A stretch of 64,000 bases of DNA from Candidatus Aenigmatarchaeota archaeon (GTDB lineage Archaea > Aenigmatarchaeota > Aenigmatarchaeia > CG10238-14 > SCSR01), in contig JAWCSL010000001.1 of NCBI GenBank assembly GCA_039090665.1, positions 1-64,000 of the forward strand, read 5' to 3'. Positions 35,745 through 47,628 of this stretch are shown here, piece by piece. Numbering within the stretch: the stretch's first letter is position 1; every line of letters starts with the position of its first letter. The position numbers and the translations under genes were made by a program. The notes under the pieces were generated by a model, which had not been told where the DNA came from, did no database searches, and worked only from the letters and a program-made list of their open reading frames with translations.

Positions 35745-35851
35745 GCTGGCGTGGATTAGCCTGGCTAAATCGCGGCGCTCATAGCATCTATGAGCTTTGA
35801 TAAAGGATGAAAGAAACGCCGAGATCGCGGGTTCAAATCCCGCCGCCAGCA
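35745..35851 (+). tRNA. tRNA-Met(CAT), probably elongator, with 32-nt intron at 37/38 (35784-35815)
   Basis: acceptor GCTGGCG/CGCCAGC; anticodon arm CGGCG-CTCATA^A-CGCCG; GGTTCAAATCC T-arm. Confidence 0.9.
35784..35815 (+). ncRNA. tRNA-Met intron carrying a box D'/C' guide for C34
   Basis: CTATGAGC pairs with GCTCATAG (35777-84); TTGA and ATGAAAG boxes; N+5 = C34. Confidence 0.75.
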
Positions 35852-37355: not shown

Positions 37356-37400
37356 CAAAACTTGATTTTTCAATTGAATTTTGTTTAGTGGTATTTCTAG

Positions 37401-37473
37401 GGCCAAGGTCGGGATTCGAACCCGAACAAAGGGCTCCACAGGCCCTTGTGCTAACCGTTACACCACCTTGGCC
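37401..37473 (-). tRNA. tRNA-His(GTG), genomically encoded G-1
   Basis: minus strand GGCCAAGG...AGGGC-CTGTGGA-GCCCT...GGTTCGAATCC...CCTTGGCC. Confidence 0.95.
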
Positions 37474-38703: not shown

Positions 38704-39603
38704 TACTGAGTTATATTATTTATTTGCTCATGGGTCTTGGCGTTGGGCTTTTGATCAAGTCAAACAAGACATGAGATGAAATAGCCTATTCTGACTCATG
38801 AGATATTGGCCTGAAGTGAAAGAGCTTCAGGTAGGTTGATTGGTGAAACCTAGAGGTAGGGCCCGCCAATTCTGGTTGATCCCGCCAGAGGCCACTGCTA
38901 TCCGGCTTCGACTAAGCCATGCGAGTCGAGAGGGGAAAGCCCTCGGCGCACTGCTCCGTAATACACAGTCAACCTACCCTTAGCTGGGGGATAATCCCGG
39001 GAAACTGGGGCTAATACCCCATAGGTGCTAGGTACTGGAAGGTCCTAGCGCCGAAAGCTCCGGCGGCTAAGGATGGGACTGTGGCCTATCAGCTTGTTGT
39101 GGAGGTAAAGGCTCCACAAGGCGATAACGGGTACGGGCTATGGAAGTAGGAGCCCGGAGATGGACTCTGAGACATGAGTCCAGGTACTACGGTACGCAGC
39201 AGGCGCGAAAACTTCTCAATGCTCGCAAGAGCGAAGAGGGAAGCCGGAGTGCCCTTGCTCTGCAAGGGCTTTTGCGGTCTGAAAACGGGACCGCGAATAA
39301 GGGGTGGGTAAGACGGGTGCCAGCCGCCGCGGTAATACCCGCGCCCCGAGTGGTGGCCACGATTATTGGGCCTAAAGCGTCCGTAGCCGGTCTGGTAAGT
39401 CCTCAGTGAAATCCTCTAGCAAACTAGAGGGCTTGCTGGGGATACTGCCAGACTTGAGACTGGGAGGGGGCAGGGGTACTCCCAGGGTAGGGGTGAAATC
39501 CTGTAATCCTGGGGGGACCACCTGTGGCGAAGGCGCCTGCCTGGAACAGGTCTGACGGTGAGGGACGAAAGCTAGGGGAGCGATCGGGATTAGATACCCC
39601 GGT

Positions 39604-39682
39604 ACACGAGGTTGGGTATCTTCTGATTTAAAGATGAAGAAAAATCCCAACTCAAGCTAGGATTTCCTAACTCGTGCGGGAA
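39604..39682 (+). ncRNA. 16S BHB intron 1 (after Ec U801) with K-loop and antisense elements
   Basis: CCCG/CGGG helix, GTA and AAA bulges; removal restores GATACCCCGGTAGTCC. Confidence 0.9.
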
Positions 39683-40082
39683 AGTCCTAGCCGTAAACGA
39701 TGCCCGCTTGGTGTTGCAAGCTTCTCGGGAGCTTGCAGTGCCGAAGCGTAGGTGTTAAGCGGGCCGCCTGGGGAGTACGCCCGCAAGGGTGAAACTTAAG
39801 GGAATTGGCGGGGGAGCACACAAGGGGTGGGCGTTGCGGTTCAATTGGATTCAACGCCGGAAATCTTACCAGGGCCGACGGCAGGATGAAGGTCAGTCTG
39901 AAGGGCTTACCAGACGAGCCGAGAGGTGGTGCATGGCCATCGTCAGCTCGTACCGTGAGGCGTGCGCTTAAGTGCGTTAACGAGCGAGACCCACACCCCA
40001 TGTTGCTAACTGCTTCTCCGGAAGCAGTGCACTCATGGGGGACCGCTGGCGATAAGCCAGAGGAAGGAGTGGGCGACGGTAG

Positions 40083-40170
40083 ACAGGTAAAAGGCTCAAG
40101 ACCGATTCATGTGAAAAAAAGATGAGCATGAATATCGCCCAGAGCCGTACATGTCTTTTACCTGACCGAA
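40083..40170 (+). ncRNA. 16S BHB intron 2 (after Ec 1197), H/ACA-like hairpin
   Basis: CGGT/ACCG helix, AGA and AAG bulges; removal restores GACGGTAGGTCCGTATG. Confidence 0.9.
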
Positions 40171-40451
40171 GTCCGTATGCCCCGAATGCCCTGGGCCACA
40201 CGCGACGCACAATGCGCGCCACAATGGGATGCGACCCCGAAAGGGGAAGCAAAGCCCCTAAAAGCGCGCTCAGTTCGGATCGAGGGCTGTAACTCGTCCT
40301 CGTGAAGCTGGAATCCCTAGTAAGCGAACGTCATCATCGTTCGCTGAATACGTCCCTGCTCCTTGCACACACTGCCCGTCAAGCCAATCGAGCGGAACTC
40401 CATCGAGGCTTGCGATGAGCAAGTCGAGTTGGAGTTCTGTGAGAGGGGCTA

Positions 40452-40557
40452 ATCTTGGGGGTCCAGAAAAAAATAATATGAAAGAATTGGCTTGACTCTG
40501 ATGTGATGATGAGATGGAGGTGAGTTGATTGCTTGTATGGACCTCCCAAGAGCCTAA
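40452..40557 (+). ncRNA. 16S intron 3 (between Ec A1492/A1493) containing a full box C/D sRNA
   Basis: GGGC/GCCT helix, TAA and AAA bulges; removal restores GGGGCTAAGTCG; C, D', C' and D boxes present. Confidence 0.9.
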
Positions 40558-40832
40558 AGTCGCCACAAGGTAGCCGTACGGGAACGTGCGGCTGGATCAC
40601 CTCCTTACGTGCAACCCTACCTCAGGCACCATAAACAACCCTACCTGAAAGAATTTTCCTTTTTATCAGTACCAAAGTAAAAAAAATTAAGCTCGAATCT
40701 TTACCATTATCCTCAAATTTTTCAATTCTTTTCTTAAACTGTTTTCAAAAAGCTTGTGTTAACTAAAAACTAAAATAAATGAGAGAAAAATAGCTACCGA
40801 GCTTATAAAATAATAAAAATTGGGAAACCATT

Positions 40833-42851
40833 TCAAGCAAGAATAGCATATCTAGCGATCAAAGAAGCAAAGACAGAAGCTGTTAAAGACATGACTGTTA
40901 TCATTGTGTTCAAACTTGGTCCTGCTGTGTCCTTGAAAGGATCACCAACAGTATCACCAACAACAGCAGCCTTATGAGCTTCTGAACCTTTTCCACCAAA
41001 AGCCCCTTCTTCTATCAGCTTCTTAGCATTGTCCCAAGCTCCACCAGAATTTGCCATGAAAAGAGCAAAAATTATTCCTGTGATTATACTTCCTGCTAAA
41101 AAGCCCGCTAAAGCCTCTTTTCCCAAAATGAAGCCAACAAGCAAAGGTGCAGCTATAGCAAGCAAACAAGGAAGCATAAGCTCTCTTAAAGCACCTTTAG
41201 TTGCTATGTCCACGCATTTGGCATAATCAGGTTTAGCTTTTCCTTTCATCAATCCAGGAATTTCTTTAAATTGCCTTCTCACTTCTTCTATCATACGAAA
41301 AGCATTTCTCCCTACTGCCAAAATCAATAAAGCCGAAATCACAGGAGGCATCATGCTACCAATAAAAGTCCCAACTATAACCTTAGGCTCCATCAAGTTT
41401 ATTGAAAACAAACCAGTAGTCAAATCTTTCCTTATTTCAACAACTTCAGCGTAAGCCCCAAGCAAAGCCAAAACTGTTAAAGCTGCAGCACCAATCGCGA
41501 AACCTTTTGTTATTGCTTTTGTTGTATTTCCCAAAGCATCAAGTCTGTCTGTAATTTCCAAGACTTTGCCTTTCAAACCAGCTTGTTCCGCTATTCCTTT
41601 TGCATTATCGACAATTGGACCATAAGCATCAGAAGAAATTATCATTCCAACTATTGCTAACATACCCACTGCTGCTATAGCCACACCATAAAGATTACTT
41701 ACACCGAAAGCCCCTGCAAGATGCCAAGCTGCAAGCATTGCTACACAAATTCCGATGATTGAAGGTACAATGCTCAAGATTCCATAAGAAAAGCCTGAGA
41801 GGATGTTGATAGCAGCTCCTGTTTTTGCAGCTTCTGCTGTTTTTTTCACAGGAGCTTTATCGATTGATGTATAGTAGTTTGTTGTTATTCCTATAATCAT
41901 GCCAGATATAAGTCCAGCTAAAGTTGGTAAGAGAACACCAAAAGTTTGGTTTCCAAGTTCAAGAGCTTGAATCACAAAAAATGTTAAAATTGCAAAAATA
42001 AAACAAGTGGAAAAGGTTCCAACATTCAACGCAAGATTAGGGTTCTTTTTCTTGGCCAAATTGACGAAAATTAAACCAAGAAGAGAGGAAAAAATCCCAG
42101 CAGCTGCTATCAACAAAGGCAAGAAGATAAAGCTTGGAGCAATTGCTTTCCCAATTATCATGGCAGCTATGATGCTTGCTATGTAAGAATCTATCAAGTC
42201 AGCACCCATTCCTGCAACATCACCCACATTATCACCCACATTATCAGCAATAACAGCAGGATTTCTTGGGTCATCTTCAGGAATTTCCATTTCCACTTTT
42301 CCCACCAAATCAGCTCCAATATCTGCTGTTTTAGTGTAAATGCCACCACCAGCTTTTGCAAACAAAGCCAAAGCACTTGCACCAAAGCTGAAACCCAAAA
42401 CAATCTCAGGATCTTGGTAAATTTGGTATAAAATGCTTATGCCAAGCAAAGCTATGCCAACTATCATTAAACCCATGATGGCCCCACCATAAAAACCAAC
42501 AGAAAAAGCTTTTGCTAATCCTTTTCTTGCTGCATTTGTAACCCTAACATTTGTTTTAACTGCTGCCAGCATTCCAAAGTAGCTTGCTATAGCAGTGGAA
42601 AAAGAGCCAAGCAAGTAGGCTAGAGCTATGTCTGGGCTTAAGAAGAGAAAAATAAGAGTTGTCATGATGACAACGAAAATTGCCAAATAAAGATTTTGCC
42701 TCTTCAAGTAAGCTTTTGCTCCCACTTTTATCGCTTCAGAAATTTCTTCCATTTTTTTGGTTCCCGGGCTTTGTTTGCTCACATGGAAATACAAGTAACA
42801 AGCTGTGAAGATCGAAGCTAAGCCTGCGATTGTTGGGATTGAAGCAAACAT
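40833..42851 (-). CDS. hppA: membrane-integral pyrophosphatase (GNTTKA, K+-independent type)
   Basis: [39 protein letters not shown]. Confidence 0.96.
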
Positions 42852-42908
42852 GAAATCACGATATATAAAAATTTTGTTCGATGATAACTTAAATTTTAAA
42901 CCATAAGA

Positions 42909-43320
42909 TTAAGTTAAGTAGTGCCTACATATTTCTAAAACTTTCCTACATTTTTCACACAAAAAATTCTCTATCCTTAAGTTAGAAGGATTGATTGACC
43001 AAAGATATTCGACCAACTCTTCGACCTTACTATAAGGATACATTAAACACTTGTATTTGTAATCTGGCTCATAATGATGAGTCAATCCGAATTTATTTTC
43101 AGCTATTTCATGTAAAAACCCGCAACTCAAAAATCTCTTCTTGATTTCTAAATATTGATTTGAAATAAAGAAAGTAGATAAATAAATTGACAAATAACTT
43201 TCTTTATCGATTTCTAATATGTTAGAAGCTGCCCAGCTCTTAAGGCCTCTCTCAAGAAAGTGATACGGAACTTCAGATCCTTCTGTGTAAAAGAATGGGC
43301 CGTAAAGTAATAATTTTCAT
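42909..43320 (-). pseudogene. hypothetical gene with apparent +1 frameshift just after the ATG
   Basis: ATGAAAATTATTA: removing one A opens a frame (MKLLLYGPFFY...) continuous with ORF 42909-43193. Confidence 0.5.
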
Positions 43321-43347
43321 TCCACACTATTAAGTTATTCTTTTTAT

Positions 43348-43696
43348 TTATGAAAGGTAAAACCAAGTCGAAAATCTCATTAAATTACAGGAGTGTTGAT
43401 CTTCATAAGTTTCTTTTGCCAATTTCAGTATTTTTTCTTTTGAATCTAATCCATATTTTCTAAGGATTTTCCAATTTTCTTCAGTTAGATTTCCAATTGA
43501 ACTTTCTGTAAGCTGAAGAAAAATTTTCTTTCCTTCTTCAGTTTCTTTGCAATTATCGGAAATTCTAATTTCCAATTGGAAAATTATTTTCAAGAAGAGT
43601 TTTCTTCAAAATATCTTCTAGTTCTCCATTTCTTTTTTCCACTAATATATCAAACCTTCTCATATTTTATCTGTAATATTTCTTCTGTCAAATCAT
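43348..43696 (-). pseudogene. hypothetical gene interrupted by single-base insertions
   Basis: frames join as ...YEKV-DILVEKRNGELEDILKK...FPI-EIRISDNCK... after removing single duplicated bases. Confidence 0.45.
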
Positions 43697-43786
43697 TTTT
43701 TTCAAAAAATCTATTTAGAGTAAGAAATTTTAAAAAATATAAAGAATTTAGTTTAAGTTCACAATTATTTAATACCAGCTCAAAAC

Positions 43787-43858
43787 GGGCCGGTAGATCA
43801 ATGGTAGATCGCCTCGCTTGCAACGAGGAGGCTCCGGGTTCAAATCCCGGCCGGTCCA
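43787..43858 (+). tRNA. tRNA-Ala(TGC)
   Basis: GGGCCGG/CCGGTCC acceptor with G3:U70; CCTCG-CTTGCAA-CGAGG. Confidence 0.96.
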
Positions 43859-43885
43859 TCAATGAAATTTTATTAAATTTAAATT

Positions 43886-43900
43886 CGAAATCTTTATAAA
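43886..43900 (+). promoter_or_regulatory. BRE/TATA promoter of the 23S unit
   Basis: CGAAA-TC-TTTATAAA ~25 nt before a GCCGGTG...CATCGGC hairpin. Confidence 0.6.
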
Positions 43901-43973
43901 TACAAAATACAACTTATTTATTTGCCGGTGTCAGTATGTCTGCTTAATTCGAGCATCGGCTTTCTTTATTTTA

Positions 43974-44033
43974 GCGATGAGCTTTGTCTTTCTCTGCTGA
44001 CAAAAAAGATGAAGATGTGGACACCTTGTGAGC
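43974..44033 (+). ncRNA. candidate box C/D sRNA in the 23S leader (A)
   Basis: C ATGAGCT 43977, D' CTGA 43997, C' ATGAAGA 44009, D GTGA 44028; 12-13 nt spacers. Confidence 0.65.
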
Positions 44034-44080
44034 AAGCTGCATGCAACTCCTTATTGAAAGAATAAGGGGTGAAGAGTGGA

Positions 44081-44141
44081 GGTTGATGATAACATTTATT
44101 CGCCTGAAAAAAGATGAAGAGCGAACTGTCTATTTGAAACC
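44081..44141 (+). ncRNA. box C/D sRNA in the 23S leader (B)
   Basis: GGTT/AACC terminal stem; C ATGATAA, D' CTGA, C' ATGAAGA, D TTGA; guides match 16S 39293-301 and 23S 47193-202. Confidence 0.82.
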
Positions 44142-46181
44142 ATAAGATGACACTACCACAGGATCAAGGAGGTCACTAAGGCCTAACAAGCTGACCCCAC
44201 TTGGTGGATAGCTTGGCTTCGGAGCCGAAGAAGTACGTGGCAAGCTGCGATAAGCCTGGGGTAGCCGCATGCAGGCGTAGATCCCAGGATCTATGAATGC
44301 GAATCGCTGGCTTCGGCCAACTCCGAAAGGAGGGGGAACGCGCTGAATTGAAGCATCTTAGTAGGCGCAGGAAAAGAAATCAAATTGAGATGCCGTTAGT
44401 AGGGGCGACCGAAAGCGGCAGAGGGCAAACCGAACTGGTTGGCGAAGAGCCAAACAGGATGTGGAGTTGTAGGACCTGTGTCCTTCCTATCCTAGCCGAC
44501 CTGAAGTCTGCTGGAAAGCAGCGCCAAAGAGGGTGATAGCCCCGTAAGGGAAGGCTAGGAGGAAGATGGCAGGTATCCTGAGTACCATTTCCTGGATGGG
44601 AAGTGGGAAGCTGGGTGAATTAACATCCAACCCTAAATACTCCCGAAGTCCGATAGCGAACTAGTATGGTGACAGAAAGCTGAAAAGCACCGCGAAAGCG
44701 GGGTGAAAAGAGCTTGAAACCAAGTGGGGATAGTCAGACACGGCCCGGAAGGTGCTCCTTCGAATGAAATCCGAAAGGAGAGTAAGAGAAGGAGCTTACA
44801 GGGTCGTGTCGTCCGTGCGGAAACACGGGGCAGGGAGTTTGTCTCAGTGGTGAGGTTAACTTGCTTTCACAAGGTAGCCGGAGCGAAAGCGATTAGCCCG
44901 CAACTGTTCTTTATGGACAGTGAGGGGCAGGGTATGAAAGTGCCTGAAATCACTGGGACAAGACCCGAAGCCAGGCGATCTAACCCTGGGTAAGGCGAAG
45001 TCCCTCGAAAGGGGGATGGAAGCCTGCTACCGGTGCTGAGTTACAAATCGCTCGGGTGACCTGGGGTTAGTGGTGAAAAGCCTAACGAGCCTGGCGATAG
45101 CTGGTTCCTCCCCAAATGCACGTCAGTGCAGCCTGGTCGGAGGTAGGCAATGGGGTAGAGCTACTGATTGGAAGGTCAAGGACCGAAAGGTTCAGCCTTC
45201 CTGTCAAACTCCGAATCCATTGCCACCTGAGAAGACCGGAGTGAGGGTGCTGGGGTAAGCTCGGCACTCGAAAGGGGAACAACCCAGCCTAGGGTTAAGG
45301 TCCCTAAATGCTAGCTAAACGCTGAAGGGTGTCTGAACCCTCAGACAGTAGGGCTGTAGGCTTAGAAGCAGCCATCAGATAATAAGTGCGTAACAGCTTA
45401 CCTACCGAGGGTTCGGGCCCCGAAAATGGAAGGGACTAAGCTAGCTACCGATACCCTAGACCGCGAAAGCGGGGGTAGGGAGGCGTCCTGCATGGGCAGA
45501 AGCCTCTGCGTGAGCAGGGGTGGACCGTGCAGGATTGAAGATCCTGCCGAAAGTAACAGCAAAGTTAGGTGAGAATCCTAACCACCTGAAGCCTAAGGGT
45601 TTGCCAGCAATGTTGGTCAGCTGGCAGTTAGCCGGTCCTAAGGGTGCTCTTAACCGAAGCACTCGAAAGGGAAAGCCGTTAATATTCGGCTGCCATGGGG
45701 ATACGTGCGGCGACGCAAGCCAGTTTTCCGACGCTTCGGGATAGGCAGACGCAAGCTAACTGCCGAAGTGAGCGGAGTCTCTTAATGAGGAGAAGCTCAT
45801 GAAGGCAGGAATGGCTCCTCGTATGAGGAGTTCTGCTGATTCCTGGAGCCCGTGAAAAGGAAAACTGGAAGGATTCCCCATGACCGTACCGAGAACCGAC
45901 ACAGGTAGGCTTGCCGAGAAGGCAAAGGTGTGTTGGGAGAACCCAGCCTAGGGAAATCGGCAAGTTGGCCCCGTATCTTCGGTAGAAGGGGTGCCTGTTC
46001 TCTCGCAAGGGAGAGCAGGTCGCAGTGACAAGGGGGAAGCGACTGTTTAACAAAAACGCTGGAGACCGCAAGTCCGAAAGGATGTGTACGGTCTCTGATG
46101 CCTGCCCAGTGCCGGTGTGTGAAAGCCCGGTTCAACGGGAAGAAGCCCCGGCAAACGGCGGCGGTAACTCTGACCGTCGTA

Positions 46182-46231
46182 ACTCAAGGCGGTCATTTGA
46201 TTTAATGATATTCCGCTGCCTTGGGCGGCAT
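46182..46231 (+). ncRNA. 23S intron (after Ec A1927) with D'/C' guide for H69
   Basis: GTCG/CGGC helix, TAA and ATA bulges; GGCGGTCA antisense to 46171-78. Confidence 0.85.
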
Positions 46232-46360
46232 AAGTAGCGTAATCCCTTGCCGTTTAAATGACGGCCCGTCTGAACGGCTTAACGACTTCCCCACTGTCCT
46301 GGGCTGGGACCCAGTGAACTCGCCTTTCCGGTGAATAGGCCGGAGACCTCCTGTGGGAAA

Positions 46361-46391
<31 letters not shown>

Positions 46392-46545
46392 GTGTTGTGG
46401 TAAGGTTGTGACTGCATAGAGTAGGTAGGACTCGCTATTAGGCTGAGGCTTCGGCCGAAAGCTGAGAGGAAAGTGTAACACTACCCTTTCGCAACCTTAC
46501 CGCTAACTCGAAAGAGGACAGCACCAGATGGGCAGTTCGGCTGGG

Positions 46546-46631
46546 AGTCTAGAAGTCTAAATGAGGAGTCCCTTAAGTTATGATTTTTTATGATTAAGGG
46601 CATACGAACCGAAAGGCTTCTAGACCAGCAA
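46546..46631 (+). ncRNA. 23S P-loop intron (Ec G2252/G2253) containing a full box C/D sRNA targeting 16S
   Basis: GCTG/CAGC helix, GGA and AAG bulges; removal restores GGCTGGGGCGG. Confidence 0.93.
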
Positions 46632-46686
46632 GCGGTACGCCCTCGGTAAAGGATCGAGGGCGCCCAAAGGTCAGCTCATCCGGGTC

Positions 46687-46775
46687 ATGGTAGAGTCTAG
46701 TAAATGATTGGACCGTTCCAGAATGATCTTAATGATTTCTGAGGTAGCTGATGAGAATAGGCTCTACCACCCGCA
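46687..46775 (+). ncRNA. 23S H84 intron (after Ec ~C2306) containing a box C/D sRNA
   Basis: CGGG/CCCG helix, TCA and CAA bulges; removal restores CCGGGTCAGAAATCCGG. Confidence 0.9.
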
Positions 46776-46919
46776 AGAAATCCGGAGTAGAGTGTAAGCG
46801 CAAAAGCTGGCCTGACTGGATTCCGCAAAGCGAGGAATCCAGCCGCGAAAGCGTGGGCTAGCGATACTTCGGTTCCTCTTAATGGGGGCCGGAGGTATCA
46901 GAAAAGCTACCTCGGGGAT

Positions 46920-46973
46920 AAACTAGCTAGGGCTGATTAAATTATTTTTCTTCATATCTAGCTAGTTCCCTAA
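46920..46973 (+). other. 23S hairpin intron after Ec U2449
   Basis: GGGG/CCCT helix, ATA and AAA bulges, 10-bp AACTAGCTAG stem; removal restores GGGGATAA. Confidence 0.88.
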
Positions 46974-47001
46974 AATGGGCCCGTGGCCGGCGAAAGCCCA
47001 C

Positions 47002-47072
47002 TGCTCGAAGGGGTTTTTCGTCCCAAAGATAGCGAGCCTCGGGTTCTGAACTCGAGCCCTTCGCGCGGGTAA
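47002..47072 (+). ncRNA. 23S H89 intron (after Ec ~2477) with antisense elements to the PTC
   Basis: GCCC/GGGT helix, ACT and AAA bulges; removal restores GCCCACATTGACCC. Confidence 0.88.
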
Positions 47073-47628
47073 ATTGACCCGGCGCGTTGGTGCGTCGATG
47101 TTGGCTCCCCCTCTCCTGGCCGTGCAGCAGCGGCCAAGGGTACAGGTGCCCACTGGTTAAAAGGGGACGCTAGCTGAGTTCAGAACGTCGTGAGACAGTT
47201 CGGTCGCTATCTACAGGAGGTGCTGGTCGTCTGACCGGAAGGAAGGGTTAGTACGAAAGGAACACCCTTCCGTGGCCTCTGGTCTACCGGTTGTCCATTT
47301 GGCATCGCCGGGCAGCCAAGCCATACGTGGATAAGAGCTGAATGCATCTAAGCTCGAAACCACCCGGAAAAATAGACGACCACTCTTGCTACTGGTGCGC
47401 AAGCATCGGTGGCAAGACGAAGGCCCCTGTAGACTACAGGTTTGATAGGGGAGAGGTGTAAGCCTCAAGCTTTCGAGCGAGAGGCGAGCCTGCTCCTACT
47501 AAAAGCCTGAGTTGTTAGGCCTTGATAAGCTCCTTGATCCTGTGGTAGTGTGAAAAAATTCTGATTCTCCCAAAAATATATACTAGAGTAGAGAAAACTT
47601 ATTTAATTGTCACTACATAGTAGTTATT

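Follow-up and report, generated by a model that had tools for sequence, protein, structure and literature searches.

A 16S rRNA gene intron of a Candidatus Aenigmatarchaeota archaeon appears to encode a box H/ACA guide for its host rRNA

In a 64,000-nt stretch of DNA from a very small hot-spring archaeon, a member of Candidatus Aenigmatarchaeota (contig JAWCSL010000001.1, positions 1 to 64,000, here called the window), the 16S rRNA gene contains an 88-nt intron of the bulge-helix-bulge (BHB) type. This intron is likely to harbor an entire box H/ACA guide RNA of the single-hairpin kind, the pocket of which would present U39835 of the same 16S rRNA for isomerization to pseudouridine (Ψ). The intron appears to be the gene of a pseudouridylation guide for its host rRNA, directed at a site that, by our mapping, is proven to be modified in Pyrococcus. 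The genome to which the window belongs is labelled G000 (0.62 Mb, 90.6% complete), and its relatives bear further G numbers. Positions are those of the window, and Escherichia coli (Ec) numbering was obtained by aligning the spliced 16S rRNA to rrsB with MAFFT. Feature coordinates are collected in Table 1.

The Rfam match to archaeal small-subunit (SSU) rRNA extended over 1,737 nt versus 1,478 positions of the model, and comparison with relatives located three insertions in the gene (~39605-39682, 40083-40170 and 40453-40556). The second of these, the intron in question, lies between Ec1197 and Ec1198. Relatives without an intron read GACGGTAG|GTCCGTATG at this site, with the junction GACGGTAG|GTCCG. 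Removal of the intron yields GACGGUAG-GUCCGUAUG, which matches the intron-less relatives as well as the Rfam consensus and restores the conserved rRNA sequence. At its boundaries, two 3-nt bulges flank a 4-bp CGGU/ACCG helix, and both predicted splice sites lie after the second bulge base. This geometry was the same in all members of the intron family described below, with a weak outer exon-exon helix of 2 bp; in the central helix, the 3' strand varied between ACCG, GCCG and GCUG, each of which pairs with exon CGGU. Inside the splice sites, the intron is closed by a 9-bp helix (h') with compensatory changes at 5 of its 9 pairs and 96.5% of cells paired in the family alignment. From these features we infer splicing of the intron from the 16S precursor.

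Within h', the intron folds into a lower stem, an internal pocket and an upper stem, followed by an ACA box. The strands of the upper stem, ATTCATGT (40105-40112) and GCATGAAT (40126-40133), form 7 bp and a U.G pair. Above them is a GA...GA K-loop (40113-40125), in which the two GA dinucleotides occupy 40113-40114 and 40124-40125 and the loop 40115-40123; with the tandem G.A/A.G pairs of these dinucleotides, the stem comprises 10 stacked layers. A first-pass annotation, made by a model that saw only the letters and their open reading frames (ORFs), had described the lower stem, pocket, upper stem, K-loop and ACA box at 15 nt, and all of these elements were found where it had placed them. The minimum free energy (MFE) of the intron was -24.1 kcal/mol (z = -3.95), and none of 200 shuffled sequences folded as low. 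An H/ACA descriptor matched 47 times in the 0.62-Mb genome, both strands included, and 14, 20 and 14 times in three shuffled copies; the chance of a match within a given 88-nt stretch is ~1 to 3 per 1,000. In this descriptor search of G000, no convincing H/ACA RNA was found beyond the intron, the 47 matches lying mostly in A+T-rich coding sequence. No Rfam family matched the + strand of the intron at E values up to 10, and the minus strand gave only a chance match to MIR950 (E 6.2). In its hairpin, its 10-layer K-loop stem and its ANA box, the element agrees with the H/ACA class; a fully canonical target register and the protein Gar1 are the exceptions.

Table 1. Positions of the 16S intron, its H/ACA elements, the predicted target and the rRNA genes
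Feature	Positions	Strand	Basis
88-nt BHB intron of 16S with H/ACA module	40083-40170	+	Rfam SSU alignment, intron-less relatives
5' splice site: exon CGGU 40077-40080 (5' strand of central 4-bp BHB helix) and 3-nt bulge AG|A 40081-40083	40077-40083	+	Sequence
Intron closing helix h', 5' strand CAGGUAAAA	40084-40092	+	MFE fold; pairs with 40156-40164
Lower stem, 5' strand GGCUC	40093-40097	+	MFE fold; pairs with 40142-40146
5' guide strand of pocket, AAGACCG (family core (R)AACCG)	40098-40104	+	ACCG invariant in family alignment; complements 16S CGGUU(C) 39837-39842
Upper ("GA") stem and K-loop	40105-40133	+	Fold, covariation
3' guide strand of pocket, AUCGCCCA (pocket 3' side ATCGCCCA; family core A-N-CGCC)	40134-40141	+	Conserved core, variable second base; CGCCCA complements 16S UGGGCG 39828-39833
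Lower stem, 3' strand GAGCC	40142-40146	+	Fold, per-sequence parse
ACA (ANA) box, 15 nt past the pair closing the pocket	40149-40151	+	Sequence; ANA kept in family
Intron closing helix h', 3' strand UUUUACCUG	40156-40164	+	MFE fold, covariation
3' splice site: intron ACCG 40165-40168 (3' strand of central BHB helix) and 3-nt bulge AA|G 40169-40171	40165-40171	+	Sequence
Predicted target UGGGCGU-[U39835 G39836]-CGGUUC, Ec 943-957	39828-39842	+	Relaxed target scan
Archaeal SSU rRNA	38869-40605		Rfam RF01959
Large-subunit (LSU) rRNA	44179-47522		Rfam

Introns of the same family occupy the same 16S site in related archaea. We compared 16 distinct variants, obtained from six related genomes and from 16 of 17 metagenome loci found by a junction pattern; the 17th locus held an unrelated 80-nt intron. 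A 17th variant, from one more genome of the order (G075), stands outside the 16-variant counts. A pattern scan of genome contigs returned 11 loci, namely seven family members and four chance matches outside rRNA. The metagenome-assembled genomes vary in quality, and one of them (G005, 4% contamination) carried two different copies on two contigs. In a model-based alignment, 91.9% of cells were paired over the whole structure versus 78.7% in column shuffles (none of 500 reached the observed value), and 24 to 46% were paired when the partners were slid. Compensatory changes affected 7 of the 8 pairs of the upper stem, in which 98.4% of cells were paired. When each sequence was parsed separately, the GA stem comprised exactly 10 layers (8 plus the tandem G.A pairs) in all 16 variants. 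Conservation of the K-loop and the ACA box, which the first-pass annotation had named as a check, held up: the K-loop GA...UGA was invariant, and an ANA box was present in 16/16 variants (ACA in 11, AAA in 3, AUA in 1 and AGA in 1), at a distance from the pocket of 15 nt in 12 variants, 14 nt in 3 and 16 nt in 1. Lower stems measured 5 to 9 bp and differed in sequence, and many ended directly at the ANA box. While the stems varied, the pocket strands remained constant as (R)AACCG and A-N-CGCC(C)A, as would be expected of guides. According to Toffano-Nioche 2015 (PMC4652768), productive archaeal H/ACA motifs need a 10-layer "GA stem" and an ANA box at 14 to 15 nt, and the intron family shows the determinants named there.

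The target of the guide was sought with a relaxed scan, in which as many as two guide bases could be unpaired at the upper end of the 3' strand and the substrate could contain one additional base. In the 16S and 23S rRNAs together, U39834/U39835 was the single site that passed, and U39835 is a better pocket target than the one named in the first-pass annotation. This nucleotide corresponds to Ec U950 and lies 248 nt upstream of the intron. In the predicted duplex, CGCCCA is matched to 39828-39833 and GACCG to 39837-39841; bulging of the variable second base would further allow the conserved A at the top of the 3' guide to pair with U39834. U39834, with two unpaired bases after it, would be an alternative target. 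An extra unpaired substrate base is tolerated by the guide Pab19 (PMC2377435). The target sequence was identical in every intron-bearing 16S rRNA for which the region was available. Most likely, the intron guide converts one uridine of its own host 16S rRNA to pseudouridine. A loose pattern scan gave 136 matches and was too permissive, and exposed, besides the Ec 944-955 site, a weak site in tRNA-His (37400-37472, minus strand; UGGUG-UAA-CGGUU around U13). The latter was set aside, as it involved one G.U pair and three unpaired bases and occurred in one tRNA only.

Orthologs of the guide were also found as stand-alone hairpins. A model built from introns only (R1) retrieved a 66-nt hairpin in G014 (G014:C17:15973-16038, 37 bits), a genome whose 16S rRNA has no intron at the site. 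It consists of a 9-bp lower stem, the 5' guide AACCG, a 10-layer K-loop stem, the 3' guide AACGC and an ACA at 15 nt. A second model (R2) added G078:C18 and G076:C62, with the guides GAACCG and AGCGCU and lower stems that differ by a compensatory pair. The stand-alone copies of G014, G076 and G078 share an AACCG / A-N-CGC pocket, covarying lower stems of 8 to 9 bp and an ACA at 15 nt, and the 10-layer stem was present in these three as well as in the copies of G036 and G045. The G078 hairpin is located in a 260-nt intergenic region, downstream of a TATA-like box and followed by C/D-box-like small RNAs (sRNAs); the 16S rRNA of this genome has the identical target and no family intron, and the intron form occurs in G075, a member of the same genus. 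A survey of 117 genomes of the order under stricter filters detected the intron form in 7, the stand-alone form in 6 and both forms in none. At the level of the class (151 genomes, R2, E <= 0.01, same stricter filters), the search returned besides G000 only three already-known relatives, and neither model found another member of this guide family in G000.

Guide and target covary in the sister family. In G042, the 16S target reads GGGUGG-U-G-CGGUUC, and the 3' guide CCACC of its stand-alone ortholog pairs with GGUGG canonically, leaving U950 and G951 unpaired; G036, of the same family, has the 3' guide CCACCG. This covariation, together with the G at position 949 in G042, favors U950 as the common target. 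In G045:C33, the 5' guide is identical and the 3' guide reads AUCACG; this copy counts neither way, because the 16S target region of that genome is unassembled. The assemblies of G014, G036 and G076 likewise lack the 5' part of the 16S rRNA. Inspection of the weak model matches G020:C54, G002:C13, G035:C35 and G093:C25 revealed no K-loop hairpin, and these candidates were rejected. Another weak model match was obtained in G113:C12. A further weak model match, in G042 (G042:C30:36629-36716, L071), looks like a genuine H/ACA hairpin, but its pocket is another one (UUGCCAC / AUCGCGG); it has AUA at 15 nt and the upper stem of one intron subgroup. Directly after the stand-alone H/ACA orthologs (L082 1501-1650, G078:C18; L065 1501-1600, G014:C17; L066; L068), one or two C/D-box-like sRNAs follow (AUGAUGA, 12 nt, CUGA, etc.), and together they make up small clusters of sRNA genes preceded by a TATA-like box. 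In the 16S rRNA of G078 (G078:C10, L093), the region near Ec1197 reads GGTAG and then GTACCGACGAGC, where others read GTCCGTATG, which points to another, distinct insertion a few bases away from the H/ACA intron site.

In the alignment to E. coli, Ec 966, which we take to be the site of 1-methyl-3-(3-amino-3-carboxypropyl)pseudouridine (m1acp3Ψ), falls on U39851, and the nucleotide 16 nt upstream is U39835. In Sulfolobus islandicus, U930 is equivalent to the m1acp3Ψ site of yeast 18S rRNA and U1009 to U1017 of Pyrococcus abyssi (PMC11077068). These equivalences place the m1acp3Ψ-site equivalent of P. abyssi at ~938, and therefore Ψ922 of this organism 16 nt upstream of it. Ψ922 was detected in P. 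abyssi 16S rRNA by CMCT modification and reverse transcription and was made in vitro by the Pab160 ribonucleoprotein, Pab160 being the same guide as Pf9 of Pyrococcus furiosus (PMC2377435). Pf9/Pab160 guides Ψ910 in P. furiosus and Ψ922 in P. abyssi (PMC2377435, PMC2094053), and the Pf9 pocket complements nucleotides 905 to 917 around U910 (PMC2094053). By our mapping, which assumes no insertion or deletion between the cited positions, U39835 (Ec U950) would be the counterpart of Ψ922. Like Pf9/Pab160, the intron element is a single hairpin with a lower stem, a pocket, an upper stem with a K-turn or K-loop, and an ACA box; by the same mapping it shares the target position Ec U950, and the 6-nt target stretch on the 3' side, nucleotides 912 to 917 of P. 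furiosus, corresponds to CGGUUC here. Pf9, compared by its published description, is a gene of its own and has a K-turn and a lower stem that is longer. The intron element, in contrast, resides in a BHB intron of the very rRNA that it would target and has a K-loop, a lower stem of 5 to 9 bp and a helix after the ACA.

The proteins that such a guide would work with are largely encoded in G000. These are Cbf5 (with TruB_N, TruB_C_2 and PUA domains), Nop10 and L7Ae, along with EndA and RtcB. We propose that L7Ae would bind the K-loop and Cbf5-Nop10 the lower stem and the ACA, and that the pocket would clamp Ec 943-957 by pairing with 16S 39828-39833 and 39837-39841. U39835 and G39836 would then remain unpaired in the active site of Cbf5, and U39835 would be converted to pseudouridine. 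EndA would cut at both bulges, and RtcB would join the exons, restoring helix 34, and would probably circularize the excised intron. The guide could act before splicing, at a distance of 248 nt from its target in the precursor, or after its excision. Proteins of P. furiosus can work with guides of foreign origin (PMC11077068). The central proposal of the first-pass annotation, an H/ACA guide in the second 16S intron, finds strong support in the covariation, the constant 10-layer stem, the ANA spacing, the protein genes and the stand-alone orthologs.

Several observations weigh against this interpretation. Structurally, the lower stem in the window has 5 Watson-Crick pairs versus 7 to 9 in classical guides, the ACA is internal, with UGUC and the 9-bp helix h' downstream of it, and RNAalifold favors a competing fold in which h' is longer by three pairs at the cost of the lower stem. 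As for the target, a strict canonical H/ACA scan of the genome gave no rRNA or tRNA site, only G.U-rich coding sites. The pairing in the lineage of G000 is not fully canonical, as either the second base of the 3' guide is bulged or U39834, U39835 and G39836 are all unpaired, and in CGCCA variants the 3' duplex has just 4 to 5 bp. At least 14 other sites in the genome score equal to the rRNA site in the relaxed scan, and the target score alone is therefore weak. Moreover, several relatives have the identical target sequence, and the guide was not detected in them. The equivalence to Ψ922 derives from position arithmetic on published numbers and the E. coli alignment rather than from a Pyrococcus alignment. 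Gar1 was not found in G000 (90.6% complete), either by Pfam or with the Gar1 of a relative, and a Gar1 match was present in 1 of the 40 genomes searched, G000 among them. One study describes the Gar1-less P. abyssi enzyme as active in single turnover in vitro and as turning over poorly (PMC6138745). Finally, we infer all three of splicing, excised RNA and pseudouridine from the DNA.

The hairpin might also be explained otherwise. It could be an L7Ae-binding folding or assembly module that presents the BHB or chaperones helix 34, its pocket pairing in cis with the adjacent exon in the manner of snR30 and making no pseudouridine. The pocket cores do pair with exon sequence immediately 5' to the splice site as UGGGCG-A-CGGU, with one unpaired base; because that base is an A, the adjacent exon offers no U. 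In addition, other small rRNA introns of the locus carry K-loop hairpins too, the competing extension of h' found by RNAalifold is compatible with a structural role, and exon CGGU can pair either with the ACCG of the pocket or with that of the BHB, which could act as a switch. However, the same pocket recurs in the stand-alone genes of G014, G076 and G078, where no exon is adjacent; a plain L7Ae site needs neither an ANA box at 14 to 16 nt nor a fixed 10-layer stem; and the G042 guide covaries with the Ec 944-949 site. We regard a purely structural module as unlikely.

Somewhat less probable again is an evolutionary relic, that is, a captured former guide gene that is non-functional in this genome and kept for intron folding or splicing. 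The short 5-bp lower stem would fit such a relic. So would the 5' guide, in which G stands in place of the A of relatives and makes a U.G wobble with the target, and the failure to find Gar1 in G000. On the other hand, the ANA box, the pocket cores and the 10-layer spacing were kept over 16 variants while neighboring bases changed, which indicates purifying selection on these guide features. Furthermore, no other member of the guide family was found in G000, yet Cbf5 and Nop10 are kept, with the reservation that, according to PMC6138745, Cbf5 has guide-independent substrates too. The target tentatively named in the first-pass annotation, U40080 in the ligated exons, is highly improbable: this nucleotide is indeed Ec1195, UCGCCCA does complement exon UGGGCGA (40070-40076), and GACC does complement GGUC, which arises only upon ligation, but GACC occurs in 1 of the 16 variants, that of G000, the other 15 reading AACC and so giving a mismatch, five substrate bases instead of two would be unpaired, the site fails both the strict and the relaxed scan, and both the stand-alone orthologs and the covariation in G042 favor Ec U950 instead.

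Introns in archaeal rRNA genes have been on record since 1985. In Haloferax, the tRNA-Trp intron contains a C/D guide that acts on its own host RNA. The literature on Nanoarchaeum equitans describes a box C/D guide in a BHB intron of tRNA-Met (PMC3491384). Like these C/D guides of archaeal tRNA introns, the element described here would be a modification guide in a BHB intron, freed by the tRNA splicing endonuclease; unlike them, it would direct pseudouridylation rather than methylation, and its host is an rRNA. There is a further parallel to eukaryotic intronic H/ACA small nucleolar RNAs (snoRNAs), which are likewise H/ACA guides freed from introns (PMC7991803); as the eukaryotic guide is liberated from an intron, its production is tied to transcription of the host. 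In eukaryotes the hosts are spliceosomal introns of protein-coding or non-coding genes, the guides have two hairpins, and Nhp2 acts without a K-turn (PMC7991803), whereas the present guide would have the rRNA gene itself as its host and sits in a BHB intron, a type spliced by proteins. As in the 16S introns of Thermoproteales (PMC4496867) and in archaeal rRNA introns generally (2013 review, PMC3608112), the BHB intron lies within a conserved part of the 16S rRNA. Known archaeal rRNA introns are described as containing homing-endonuclease ORFs or as having no known function, and the review names functional non-coding RNAs derived from such introns as something still to be sought (PMC3608112). 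A full-text literature search, with subscription-only papers outside its scope, retrieved no description of an archaeal rRNA intron that contains an H/ACA guide. The novelty is the location of the H/ACA guide, inside an intron of rRNA; its mode is Pf9/Pab160-like.

That close relatives have the same guide either within an intron or as an independent gene provides a natural experiment on guide genes entering and leaving introns, and this switch bears on the origin of intron-encoded snoRNAs. For annotation, the sole detectable H/ACA guide in these reduced genomes is missed by gene finders and Rfam, and such introns disturb 16S-based surveys.

Two further rRNA introns of the window look like C/D box guides. 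The third 16S intron (40453-40556, 104 nt) has a BHB of exon GGCU and intron AGCC with the bulges AA|U and UA|A. Its first half comprises a C-like AUGAAAG (40478), a guide (40485-40497) and D' CUGA (40498), and its second half C' AUGAUGA (40506), a guide (40513-40524) and D UUGA (40525). The D' guide forms 11 contiguous Watson-Crick pairs with 16S 40378-40388 in the decoding region (~Ec 1405-1415), and the core of the D guide, GGAGGUGA, complements the 16S 3' end, UCACCUCC; the boxes and both guide cores are kept in seven other distinct homologs of relatives. In the 23S rRNA gene, a 93-nt insertion (~46695-46787) with a BHB-like structure (exon CGGG, intron CCCG) has the C/D arrangement: a loop separates two units, in each of which a guide of 12 nt lies between two boxes (AAUGAUU and AUGA in the first, AUGAUUU and AUGA in the second). 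Pairing of the second guide with 23S 46905-46915 (region 46904-46915) involves 11 of its 12 positions, including one G.U. For these two C/D-type introns, 2'-O-methylation is predicted near A40381, Ec C1535 and U46908. Another 23S insertion, of 88 nt, lies near 46546-46633. The first 16S intron (~39605-39683, ~78 nt, near Ec 799) contains a K-loop hairpin, CUGA-UUUAAAG-AUGAAGA, preceded by GGGUAUCU, which can form 8 bp with the neighboring exon AGAUACCC (790 loop). Neither a pocket nor a clear C or D box is present in this intron.

A general pattern of guides in rRNA introns is plausible. A bolder and rather doubtful proposal is that the rRNA introns of Aenigmatarchaeota are a regular home of modification guides complementary to the host rRNA (one H/ACA and at least two of C/D type), with the H/ACA guide made one to one with its substrate and acting in cis in a single turnover. 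If this were true, formation of Ψ950 would be coupled to intron removal, which would explain how these archaea do without the turnover factor Gar1; the intron may even have landed beside the look-alike UGGGCG-A-CGGU through pairing of the guide.

The rRNA genes of the window do not form a compact operon, because the 16S and 23S genes are separated by a 3.5-kb gap (40606-44178) with an ORF of 672 amino acids on the opposite strand (40833-42851) and a tRNA-Ala (43787-43858). The DNA sequencing runs that matched the stretch were hot-spring metagenomes. Six RNA runs, from groundwater, wetland and peat, contained a fraction of 0.18 to 0.23 of the words of the stretch, and these partial matches are probably conserved exon parts of relatives. 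A 107-nt tRNA was called by Rfam at 35745-35851 and went unreported by ARAGORN; it is probably an intron-containing tRNA.

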